A DNA stretch of 64,000 nucleotides, taken from Bacillota bacterium (GTDB lineage Bacteria; Bacillota; Clostridia; TANB77; CAG-508). This document shows positions 16,738-39,814 of this stretch, one piece after another (within the stretch, counting starts at the first letter, position 1; the number at the start of each line of letters is the position of its first letter). Where the stretch lies: positions 2,890 to 66,889 of the forward strand of contig CAWVJB010000020.1 of assembly GCA_963929525.1 (NCBI GenBank), read 5' to 3'. The notes below the pieces were generated by a model. The model saw nothing but the letters and a program-made list of their open reading frames with translations, did no database searches and was not told where the DNA came from. Both the position numbers and the translations under genes were made by a program.

Positions 16738-16812
16738 TGGCAGGGGTAGTAGGATTCGAACCCACACAGGCGGTTTTGGAGACCGATGTGCTACCATTAA
16801 CACTATACCCCT
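16738..16812 (-). tRNA. tRNA-Trp (CCA)
   Basis: Reverse complement AGGGGTATAGTG...CTCCAAA...GGTTCGAATCC...CCCCTGCCA; 75 nt; close to B. subtilis tRNA-Trp. Confidence 0.9.
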
Positions 16813-16929
16813 ATCAATCATTTAATTACAACAATTAATATATTAGCATAAAAAAAAGATTTTATCAATATTTTTTTGAAAATTATTGACTTTTTTTAAT
16901 AAAGATAATAAAATATATAAAATTAAATA

Positions 16930-17152
16930 TCTACGGTGAAGAAGAAAAAATACTGTAATATTTATTTAAAGAGAGTTGGTGAAGGTGAGATACCAGCAAT
17001 AGATAAGTATGGGGAGCTTTGGAGTGGATTTAAAATGAAGGTGCTTAAAACTTCAGATAACTTTCATCTATGTTTTAAGAATTAGGGTGGAAACGCGGAA
17101 TATAACTTTCGTCCCTAGTATGTGATTATACTAGGTTGATGAAAGTTTTTTT
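16930..17152 (+). promoter_or_regulatory. T-box leader (riboswitch) for glyQS
   Basis: AGAGAG box and GGTGAAGGTGAGA distal motif, T-box sequence aattagggtggaaacgcgg, then terminator aactttcgtccctagtat...atactaggttgatgaaagttttttt. Confidence 0.85.
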
Positions 17153-17533
17153 GTTTTAAATTTAATGAAAAGCAGCAATCTGCACATTTTTATAGAAATA
17201 ACAACCCTCAACGTACAGAAGTACGCCCTCGGCTTGTTATTTCTATAAAAATGCACATCTTACTACTTTTGATTAAATTATGCGAATCAGATGAGAATTC
17301 AGCATCTAGCACATTTTCGTAATTTATTTCAAACCTCGATGTACAAATGTACACCTTCGGCTTGAAATAAATCACAAAAATGCACTATATAATAAATCTA
17401 ATCGATTTAGAAAGAATGCACATCTTACTACTTTTGATTAAATTATGTGATCAGATGAGAATTCAGCATCTTGCACATTTTTATTTTATTCATCAAACTT
17501 CGACGTATAGACATATTACAAAAAAACTTTCAT
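17139..17533. repeat. Family I repeat block between T-box terminator and glyQS
   Basis: Perfect 16-bp terminal inverted repeat atgaaagtttttttgt (17139-17154) / acaaaaaaactttcat (17518-17533). Internal ~95-bp direct repeat at 17251 and 17416, plus hairpins sharing cctcggcttg. Confidence 0.8.
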
Positions 17534-17567
17534 GGACTAGCAAATAAAATTAGAAGGAGGAATTGTT

Positions 17568-18950
17568 ATGTTAAAATCAATGGACACACTAGTTGCACTT
17601 TGCAAAAATAGGGGCTATATTTACCCAGGCTCAGAAATTTATGGAGGATTAGCAAACACTTGGGACTATGGACCTTTAGGGAACGAACTAAAAAACAATG
17701 TCAAAATGGCATGGAGAAAAAAATTTATACAAGAAAGCAAATATAATGTAGGATTAGATGCAGCAATTTTAATGAATCCTACAACATGGGTAGCTTCAGG
17801 ACATGTAGGCGGTTTCTCAGATCCATTAATCGATTGTAAAGAATGTAAAACAAGACATAGAGCAGATAAATTAATAGAAGAATGGGCACATGATAATGGA
17901 AAAGATATGATTGCAGATGGTATGTCTGATAAAGAATTAATAGATTTTATTAATGAAAATAAAATACCATGTCCAAATTGTGGAAAAACAAACTTTACAG
18001 ATATTAGAAAATTTAATTTAATGTTTAAAACTTTCCAAGGTGTAACAGAAGATAAAACGGCAGAAATCTATTTAAGACCAGAAACAGCACAAGGTATATT
18101 TGTAAATTTTAAAAATGTGATGAGAACAACAAGAAGAAAATTACCAATGGGAATTGCACAAATAGGAAAAGCTTTTAGAAATGAAATTACACCTGGAAAC
18201 TTCACATTTAGAACAAGAGAATTTGAACAAATGGAACTAGAATTCTTCTGTAAGCCAGGAACAGATTTAGAATGGCATGCATATTGGAAAGAATTCTGTA
18301 AAAATTGGTTATTAAATTTAGGAATCAAAGAAGAAAATATTAGATTAAGAGATCATTCAAAAGAAGAATTATCACACTATAGTAATGCAACAACAGATAT
18401 TGAATTTACTTTCCCATTTGGTTGGGGAGAATTATGGGGAATTGCAGATAGAACAGACTTTGACTTAAAGAGTCATATGAATGTTTCAAAAGAAGACTTC
18501 ACTTATACAGACCCAGAAACAAACGAAAAATATGTACCATATTGTATTGAACCATCATTAGGAGCAGATAGAGTTGCATTAGCATTTTTATGCAATGCCT
18601 ATGATGAAGAAGAAATTGGTGAAGGAGATACAAGAGTAGTATTACATTTACACCCAGTATTAGCACCATTCAAAATAGCCGTACTTCCATTATCTAAAAA
18701 ATTATCAGAAAAAGCACAAGAAGTACATGAGAAATTATCAAAGAAATTCATGTGTGATTATGATGAAACAGGAAGTATTGGAAAAAGATATAGAAGAGAA
18801 GATGAAATTGGTACACCATATTGTTTAACCGTAGACTTTGATACACTTGAAGATAATACAGTAACGATCAGAGATAGAGATACCATGGAACAAATTAGAA
18901 TTCCAATTGATGATGTAGAAAAATGGTTAGAAGAAAAATTAGAATTCTAA
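17568..18950 (+). CDS. glyQS: Glycine--tRNA ligase (homodimeric class II)
   Basis: Full-length GlyQS-like protein, 460 aa. GGAGG RBS and T-box upstream. Confidence 0.95.
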
Positions 18951-39590: not shown

Positions 39591-39814
39591 TTTTAAGTTT
39601 CGACATTTTTGCAGGTGAGGTGCGTTATTTTTTGAATAATTTCCTCGGCTTGCTACATAGATGATAACTTCTAAGTTTTTAATAAGCGAGCCTCTCGCTG
39701 TTCACGCTTCATCACTTATTAAAAACTAAGAATTTATACATTTATTCCACGGCACATTCGTCAATTTATTCAAAAAATAACGCACCTCACCTGCAAAAAT
39801 GTCGAAACTTAAAA
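39591..39814. repeat. 224-bp palindrome with 49-bp perfect arms
   Basis: ttttaagtttcgacatttttgcaggtgaggtgcgttattttttgaataa (39591-39639) and its exact complement (39766-39814). The interior is imperfectly palindromic and shares cctcggcttg with family I. Confidence 0.9.

Follow-up and report, generated by a model that had tools for sequence, protein, structure and literature searches.

Organisation of the glyQS leader

The window analysed here is a stretch of 64,000 nucleotides (contig C20:2890-66889) from a genome of 1.88 Mb and 27.8% GC, designated G000, whose host was placed by sequencing-run labels as an uncultured Clostridium of the chicken gut. It includes glyQS, which encodes a glycine--tRNA ligase (GlyRS) and is preceded by a glycine T-box leader with an intrinsic terminator. 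The terminator and the glyQS start codon are separated by a 415-nt spacer that is largely occupied by palindromic repeats and is bracketed by a perfect 16-nt inverted repeat. One arm of the inverted repeat belongs to the terminator, and the other, distal arm is proposed to act as a decoy for it in the read-through RNA. The features of the region are as follows; MFE denotes the minimum free energy structure.

16886..16914, + strand: likely promoter of the glyQS leader, TTGACT-17-TAAAAT, the best consensus match of the region (10/12)
16927..17119, + strand: glycine T-box leader with stem I, stem III, T-box sequence and antiterminator, without stem II (RF00230)
17057..17068, + strand: third motif copy ATAACTTTCATC in the stem III loop, a direct repeat specific to G000
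17095..17119, + strand: shared strand GGAAUAUAACUUUCGUCCCUAG, which serves the antiterminator as its 3' strand and the terminator as its 5' arm; its partner in the MFE is 17139-17154
17104..17152, + strand: intrinsic terminator hairpin and T7 tract (MFE pair table), conserved in all T-box-bearing relatives
17139..17154, + strand: proximal arm ATGAAAGTTTTTTTGT of the 16-nt inverted repeat, made up of the 3' arm and T-tract of the native terminator and GT
17159..17279, + strand: repeat unit u1, a full palindrome with 49-nt arms that are 84% complementary (nhmmer match 17167-17273)
17297..17397, + strand: repeat unit u2, a full palindrome with 39-nt arms (nhmmer match 17296-17400, 72.5 bits)
17412..17511, + strand: partial repeat unit u3, in which part of a right arm precedes a left arm and centre (nhmmer partial match 17460-17511)
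17518..17540, + strand: distal arm and proposed decoy, ACAAAAAAACTTTCAT (17518-17533) followed by GGA-CTAG, completing the inverted repeat and unique in the genome
17554..17570, + strand: glyQS ribosome-binding site (RBS) GGAGG (17556-17560) and start codon (17568-17570), the predicted partner of the shared strand
17568..18950, + strand: glyQS, class II glycine--tRNA ligase, 460 aa (NF003211, 704.9 bits, cut-off 312)

The region 16927-17119 matched the full RF00230 model (positions 1-219) with 78 bits (E=4.5e-17). The shortfall against the Rfam gathering score of 93 is due to the missing stem II segment of 40 positions, which leaders of the glyQS type lack. The GGGTGGAAACGCG motif of the T-box is kept among relatives, and a GGGGA run occupies the specifier position of a glyQS T-box; within it, GGA at 17013-17015 is presumably the specifier, the exact codon being assigned by analogy with B. 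subtilis glyQS. The leader thus has the attributes of a T-box, namely a match to the model, a terminator that shares a strand with the antiterminator, and an aminoacyl-tRNA synthetase gene downstream. The terminator consists of a lower stem (17104-17112/17139-17147) and an upper stem (17113-17121/17127-17135), followed by the T7 tract (17146-17152), and was missed by a simple terminator scanner because of a bulge.

An earlier note on this DNA had placed the end of the terminator near 17152, the start codon at 17568 and a perfect 16-bp inverted repeat at 17139-17154 and 17518-17533, and all of these were confirmed. The two arms are 100% complementary and 363 nt apart, and the distal arm, extended to 17540, complements not only the 3' arm and U-tract of the terminator but also CTAG in its upper stem. 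As judged by dinucleotide shuffling (0/500 shuffles reached 14 nt) and by a genome-wide count, in which a perfect reverse complement 50-600 nt downstream was found for 4 of 2832 comparable T-run 16-mers, the repeat is beyond chance. No second occurrence of the 16-mer was found elsewhere in the G000 genome. The note had also considered the spacer unusual in length. This holds for the genus, in which 19-60 nt is the commonest length, but not for G000, where all six T-box leaders (C94, C62, C80, C20, C43 and C85) have terminator-to-ATG spacers of ~230-560 nt and length alone is therefore not unusual.

The repeat array and its family

The spacer includes 2.5 tandem units of a dispersed palindromic repeat of ~110 nt. 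The partial unit u3 forms a ~95-bp direct repeat with 17247-17343, as had been noticed, with 17247-17285 and 17412-17450 matching at 95% and 17286-17343 and 17450-17507 at 81%. A proposed kinship between the hairpins and a palindrome at 39591 was not upheld, as the family profile finds nothing at 39591 and only the 8-10-mer CCTCGGCTTG is common to both.

An iterated nhmmer profile identified 16 units at 12 loci of the G000 genome, the listed units being located on contigs C10, C15, C20, C29, C44, C48, C62 and C80. Typically, a unit lies 8-35 nt past the stop codon of a gene within a co-directional operon, and the genes concerned include ribosomal-protein and str-operon genes. Two of the six T-boxes of the genome carry the family directly after their terminators, the second being a leader on C62 upstream of a gene for an isoleucyl-tRNA synthetase (IleRS)-like protein. 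Many dispersed extragenic palindromes of one family are thus present, as expected of repetitive extragenic palindrome (REP) or REPIN elements, though the units (~110 nt) are longer than classical REPs. No direct target-site duplication was evident at the family copies in G000. Two Y1 transposase genes (IS200/RAYT-type, PF01797; C4:4403-4735 and C15:3834-4163, in open frames of ~257-260 aa) were also found, with no repeat units beside either of them; the nearest unit is 12 kb away on C15, and there are none on C4.

All 13 full copies are co-oriented relative to the upstream host gene, 12 of them unambiguously and one between convergent genes. In every full copy the antisense strand folds much more stably (-25 to -71 kcal/mol) than the sense strand (-18 to -45 kcal/mol), because C·A or A·C accounts for 39 of the 57 single mismatches of the sense strand, and these are G·U on the other strand. 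The hairpins would therefore be comparatively weak in mRNA. As the strand bias commonly seen in C-to-T mutation should act in the other direction, the asymmetry suggests selection either for the antisense fold or for a weaker mRNA hairpin.

Empty and filled glyQS leaders in related species

The glyQS leader was compared across ~60 species of the same very large genus. Family units followed by a distal arm of the form A6-7CTTTCAT were found in 28 species, and empty, short spacers of 19-70 nt in 10 (including G276, G007, G003, G004, G018, G012 and G219). Two species, G108 and G170, have no units and adjacent arms (ATGAAAGTTTTTTTAACTTTCAT), while units are present in G021, G294 and G176 but the distal end is degenerate or different. 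Unrelated inserts occupy the spacer in eight species, and nine have no T-box at glyQS. A metagenome scan returned mostly distant leaders with short spacers and only three further arm-bearing loci.

The left junction of the array (T7-G, then an intact unit end) is identical everywhere, the insertion lying 2-4 nt past the U-tract of the terminator. The number of units in filled species ranges from 0.5 to 3.5, and the content of the array has been rearranged many times. The distance from the distal arm to the ATG is always 33-39 nt, and the arm is intact whereas the sequence abutting it varies by lineage. In several species the arm lies exactly at the place of a unit's own centre (…TTTC-AAACYTCGATG), and the unit centre AAACTTCGAT already resembles AAACTTTCAT, the complement of the terminator arm. 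Hence, the distal arm may go back to a truncated unit, whose centre it would have been.

In the empty-site species, the proximal-arm sequence ATGAAAGTTTTTTTG is already the arm of the terminator, and since these species carry an identical arm, it is native and not derived from the element. A search of five empty-site genomes (G276, G007, G003, G219 and G018) found no copy of the repeat family in any of them. The MITE-like (miniature inverted-repeat transposable element) insertion into the terminator T-tract suggested in the earlier note is therefore substantiated, with its position refined to directly 3' of the tract, but the alternative offered there, a terminator partly derived from the element, conflicts with the occurrence of the very same arm in species that have never carried the element. 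The leader is thus an ordinary transcriptional glycine T-box with a native terminator, and the palindromic REP/MITE-like array is a later insertion.

These comparisons also bear on whether a composite MITE, with the two arms as its terminal inverted repeats, brought the terminator 3' arm with it. Such an element would account for a perfect 16-nt inverted repeat that brackets the whole block, but it is scarcely credible given the native arm of the empty-site species and the five genomes that lack the family altogether. Moreover, no other copy of the family has these ends, the 16 inserts known from the IleRS-like leader included, the 16-mer is unique in the genome, and the insertion lacks a target-site duplication.

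By gene identity (94-95% nucleotide), G276 falls within the G000 clade, yet it has zero family copies, and both of its T-box sites are empty (glyQS leader L145 and ileS-like leader L195). Its spacer is ancestral-looking and common to the distant G007; the genome is 74% complete. It follows that either the family has been purged from the whole genome, or the family and the filled leader allele have spread horizontally between sister species.

No T-box was found upstream of glyQS in G014, G011, G023, G092, G053 and G250 (L041, L051, L052, L176, L155 and L159). In G014 hardly any sequence separates the promoter from the CTAG...RBS segment, which looks like the result of a deletion of the whole leader with its insert, and in G053 and G250 a different short leader stands in place of the T-box. 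Loss of the T-box at glyQS thus appears to be recurrent. A divergent tRNA gene with anticodon CCA (Trp) lies directly upstream of the glyQS promoter (window 16741-16812, minus strand), and this tRNA(Trp)-glyQS neighbourhood is kept in most relatives, T-box-less ones included.

Conservation of the distal arm

Among the 28 arm-bearing species, mean column identity is 0.96 in the distal arm, compared with 0.61 in the 10 nt upstream and 0.57 in the 5 nt downstream, and the terminator loop occurs in 16 different sequences. As MAFFT mis-registered the species with a T6 tract, constructs of fixed register were used, in which six T:A pairs are fixed by construction. In the 15-bp long-range helix between the two arms, 91.7% of cells are paired, as against 45-59% when the partner strand is slid, and four pairs have changed on both sides. 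The covariation score is 0.139, compared with 0.091±0.011 for shuffles, none of which (0/500) scored as high. Compensatory changes are seen in G001 (TCGAAAG / CTTTTGA), in G264, G259 and G021 (GA / TC) and in G218 (GG / CC). Species with T6 carry A6 (Fisher p=6e-4, a test that ignores phylogeny), and the metagenome loci L200 and L204 show 17/17 complementarity with T6/A6.

An inverted repeat that arose by chance, or was merely inherited without constraint and is common through close kinship, would be favoured by AT-rich sequence with homopolymer runs and by the close relationship among many of the 28 (glyQS nucleotide identities of 87-96%). This explanation is nevertheless very improbable. Besides the shuffles and the genome-wide count given above, the adjoining flanks have fallen to ~0.6 identity and the terminator loop has diverged in the very same species, the array has often been rearranged, and compensatory changes are present. 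As compared across these species, therefore, the distal arm presents as a locus-specific, constrained complement of the terminator 3' arm that lies outside the repeat family.

Two further candidates were not retained. The wobble asymmetry of the helix (16 G·U to 1 A·C) was rejected as proof of selection at the RNA level, as it consists mostly of proximal A-to-G changes that the terminator tolerates too; the four distal-side transitions in this count are non-significant (p ~0.3, our own estimate). The copy at 17057-17068, which is a perfect complement of the terminator 3' arm in the enlarged stem III loop of G000, was rejected as a conserved third partner, being absent from most relatives and found only in degenerate forms in G314 and G072.

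The IleRS-like leader and possible copying at the DNA level

The T-box upstream of the IleRS-like gene in G000 (C62:5111-5610) has 1.5 family units between its terminator and RBS. In 16 species the family is inserted a few nt past the T-tract of this leader, and the site is empty in G276, G239 and G078, so that presence/absence polymorphism of the family is found at both the glyQS and the ileS-like site. None of the 16 insert-bearing ileS-like leaders has a downstream complement of its own terminator arm (0/16). Their best arm duplexes reach -7 to -12.6 kcal/mol with perfect matches of 6-10 nt, as compared with -15 to -24 kcal/mol and 14-17 nt at glyQS. Given this control, the distal arm is not an automatic product of the insertion of a unit beside a terminator.

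At the same locus, G094, G146, G251 and G314 carry a different inserted element, and in G250 a small open reading frame (ORF) is inserted between the terminator and ileS. A T-box motif was not seen in the 700 nt upstream of ileS in G301 and G010. Among the other T-boxes of G000, the spacer of that on C94 (pheS) may hold a small ORF. In the T-box at C80:39853-40119 (minus strand), a perfect 21-bp palindrome, TTTTTTTGTGGTATAGGAAAA-atcgc-TTTTCCTATACCACAAAAAAA, has the terminator T7 tract as its 5' end, and the U-tract is likewise complemented by a downstream A7.

The main rival to an RNA function for the distal arm, and a serious one although we consider it rather unlikely, is a quasi-palindrome that is maintained at the DNA level and has no role in RNA. 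Fold-back of the palindromic units in single-stranded DNA during replication, followed by template switching, would copy the terminator-side flank past the array or perfect such a copy, so that an unconstrained distal arm would be continually corrected against the terminator-constrained arm and the complementarity would be a mutational by-product. Each copy of the family is indeed palindromic to its ends, with an outermost ~9 nt that varies between copies but stays self-complementary and extends as far as stop codons. In G259 and G021 the palindrome is continuous from the unit into the T-tract, the T7 of the C80 T-box belongs to a perfect palindrome ending in A7, the lengths of the T and A tracts match, and the unit centre could have seeded the correction. 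However, the same family in the same position in the ileS-like T-box never has a distal copy, and the arms at glyQS are kept where the array is no longer palindromic and they are 100-430 nt apart. In the nine species in which the proximal arm became ATGGAAG, seven of the distal arms have not been corrected to C and still form G·T. Copying at the DNA level also leaves unexplained the fixed distance between the arm and the ATG, and the strong, arm-associated complementarity of the shared strand to the RBS that is described below.

Transcription and predicted folding of the read-through RNA

In the X8 metatranscriptome, one contig covers 16944-17441 (T-box, terminator, u1 and u2) at a depth of 7.2 and another covers 17432-17861 (u3, distal arm, RBS and glyQS) at a depth of 8.0. 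The depth over the promoter region (16844-16904) is 0 and the neighbouring tRNA is deep, which argues that the signal is from RNA and not from carried-over DNA. A consensus search found no + strand promoter inside the glyQS spacer, and TAAAAT at 17545-17550 was rejected as an internal promoter, as it has no -35 and leaves no room for a Shine-Dalgarno (SD) sequence. The leader, spacer and glyQS are co-transcribed; an independent glyQS promoter in the spacer, which the earlier note had allowed for, was not found, and RNA contigs span the leader into glyQS.

In G000, the long-range helix is predicted with a probability of 0.995 if the RNA begins at the 3' arm. Across the 28 species, its median probability is 0.99 with the antiterminator strand blocked and 0.96 without constraint, where it exceeds 0.5 in 18/28. 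The helix, worth 2-13 kcal/mol, displaces only the lower stem of the terminator. When it is enforced, the freed part of the shared strand, GGAAUAUAACUUUCGUCCCU, pairs with the SD and AUG. The median probability that the SD is paired to the shared strand is 0.75 in filled species and 0 in both the 10 empty-site species and 15 ileS-like controls, and when the shared strand is blocked the SD is free (0.84). An SD-sequestrator is predicted in 15/28 arm-bearing species and in G108 and G170 (probability ~0.75-0.8), the latter two having the same switch arrangement compacted into ~140 nt; the value for G000 itself is 0.01. The duplex of the shared strand with the RBS has -15.9 kcal/mol in G000, within the top 1.9% of 313 genomic RBS windows, and a median of -15.6 kcal/mol in species with the arm as against -10.8 in those without (Mann-Whitney p=8e-7, phylogeny being ignored). 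Direct pairing of CUUUC in the distal arm with the SD (GAAGG), amounting to 5 bp across a 21-nt loop, was never predicted, and a role for the distal arm in a palindromic protein operator is incompatible with half-sites 0-430 nt apart.

The earlier suggestion that the two ends pair in the read-through RNA, placing a T-box strand near the RBS, is thus supported by conservation in 28 species, some compensation, folding and the spanning RNA contigs. In the mechanism considered most likely, uncharged tRNA-Gly would let the antiterminator hold the terminator 5' arm, so that RNA polymerase reads through. The distal arm, once transcribed, would pair with the unoccupied 3' arm and U-tract, looping out the repeat array, and this decoy pairing would block re-formation of the lower terminator stem. 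The shared strand would then be placed next to the SD and AUG, its complementarity to these being unusually high. As long as the tRNA held this strand in the antiterminator the RBS would be free, and with the tRNA gone the strand could sequester it. The expected outcome would be a second, post-transcriptional checkpoint on the read-through glyQS mRNA, acting via translation or via stability dependent on RNase III/RNase J. The sequence from which the decoy arose may have come with the inserted repeats.

In S. aureus, a T-box terminator re-forms in the read-through mRNA and triggers decay by RNase III/J (PMC7913692), and translational T-boxes use SD sequestrators, with a half-life of ~1 h for the glyQS T-box-tRNA complex (PMC7583486). 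Such decay upon re-formation, the use of sequestrators and the long-lived complex make the decoy and sequestrator reading plausible. We regard the chances that the distal arm serves as a decoy for the terminator 3' arm in read-through RNA as evenly balanced. A full dual transcription-plus-translation switch, in which the shared strand would toggle between the antiterminator (RBS open) and an SD-AUG sequestrator (RBS closed) with a decoy that tolerates 0-430 nt of repeats, is a tentative proposal and on the whole unlikely. Translational T-boxes lack an intrinsic terminator, and here a full, conserved terminator with T7 is present; the glyQS leader would be at most a dual platform.

Several observations weigh against the decoy. 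All of the RNA states described are thermodynamic predictions for RNAs of 140-680 nt. The MFE of G000 is the terminator state, with a probability of 0.008 for the long-range helix and the decoy state lying 1.8 kcal/mol higher, and the third copy of the motif, peculiar to stem III of G000, is a competitor for the 3' arm that lowers the predicted occupancy of the helix. The RNA evidence consists of assembled contigs, which show neither processing sites nor a read-through ratio or termination efficiency. What the alignments offer for the helix is mainly conservation with a few compensations, and covariation is modest; as the terminator fixes the proximal arm, the helix is mostly conserved and co-varies little, and most G·U cases in it are equally explained by the terminator helix. 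The species are related, a dependence that neither the Fisher nor the Mann-Whitney test takes into account. The matched T and A tracts fit copying at least as well as selection, and other palindromes in G000 also extend into flanking functional sequence, which points to a process at the DNA level.

The duplex could also be real in RNA and serve only as an RNase III processing stalk, comparable to the stems around rRNAs, that excises the T-box and array to leave a short mature 5' untranslated region, with no translational switch. A duplex of 16-20 bp with an internal loop does close a domain of long hairpins, and RNase III cleaves both transcribed Correia repeats (PMC10969869) and the S. aureus met T-box terminator (PMC7913692). 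Such a stalk is nonetheless improbable, as the arms persist in G108 and G170, where nothing is left to excise, and the complementarity of the shared strand to the RBS would be unexplained. In addition, the duplex is rich in A and U and barely long enough to be a substrate of RNase III.

Relation to known systems

Like the transcriptional glyQS/glyS T-boxes, such as that of B. subtilis glyQS, the leader has stem I, the T-box sequence and mutually exclusive antiterminator and terminator, lacks stem II, and is located upstream of the only GlyRS gene. We know of no other T-box leader with a downstream complement of the terminator 3' arm. Insertions in T-box leaders have a precedent in the lineage-specific stem Sa of the staphylococcal glyS T-box (PMC9177973). 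However, the insertion described here lies past the terminator and not within the sensing domains, and it combines a mobile repeat array with a conserved downstream complement of the 3' arm.

In the translational T-boxes of Actinobacteria (M. tuberculosis and N. farcinica ileS; PMC7583486), a strand of the anti-structure likewise pairs alternatively with the SD, reversibly on the finished mRNA. Those leaders have a local sequestrator and no intrinsic terminator, whereas here the terminator is complete and the sequestrator is predicted only after a distant decoy has taken the 3' arm. The met leader T-box of S. aureus (PMC7913692) is similar in that the fate of the read-through mRNA hinges on re-formation of the terminator and in having extra lineage-specific leader sequence, but no decoy has been described there; the one predicted here would prevent or replace re-formation. 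Chained exclusive helices with two partners per strand and long-range closure are also known from the trp attenuator (1:2 / 2:3 / 3:4) and rRNA processing stalks. In contrast to these, the chain at glyQS would reach past the terminator to the RBS and take 0-430 nt of unrelated repeats into one loop.

The repeat family resembles REP/BIME/REPIN elements and CGTC/GTAG repeats (PMC3733652, PMC3116915) in being dispersed intergenic palindromes, mostly downstream of genes in co-directional operons, that are co-transcribed, often tandem and patchy among related genomes, with Y1 transposase genes in the genome. It differs in the size of the units (~110-130 nt versus 20-40 nt), in not flanking the two Y1 transposase genes, in its host, a Clostridium and not a proteobacterium, and in wobble pairs that favour the strand antisense to the host genes. 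As imperfect palindromes of 100-150 nt that are clustered or nested in transcribed intergenic regions, the units also resemble the ERIC/IRU, Correia (NEMIS) and RUP/BOX/SPRITE MITEs. Bacterial MITEs of this kind can alter the processing and stability of mRNA, and RNase III cuts Correia hairpins (PMC10969869). In contrast to these elements, no terminal inverted repeat with target-site duplication was identified, and the 16-nt repeat is a copy of host regulatory sequence and does not form the end of an element.

Should the complementarity be of DNA origin only, it would show how palindromic repeats can duplicate the regulatory sequence next to them and maintain the match through speciation. Under the RNA reading, a mobile palindromic repeat would have contributed sequence to a host regulatory helix or at least been accommodated by it. 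The comparative series provides natural variants in the compact G108 and G170, the empty G276 and arrays of 0.5-3.5 units. The two T-box classes have been held separate, the transcriptional class making a single irreversible decision and the translational class acting as a reversible toggle (PMC7583486). If the RNA function holds, a leader that keeps its terminator and gates the RBS of the read-through mRNA with the same tRNA-sensing strand would bridge both classes, and would represent one evolutionary route from one towards the other.

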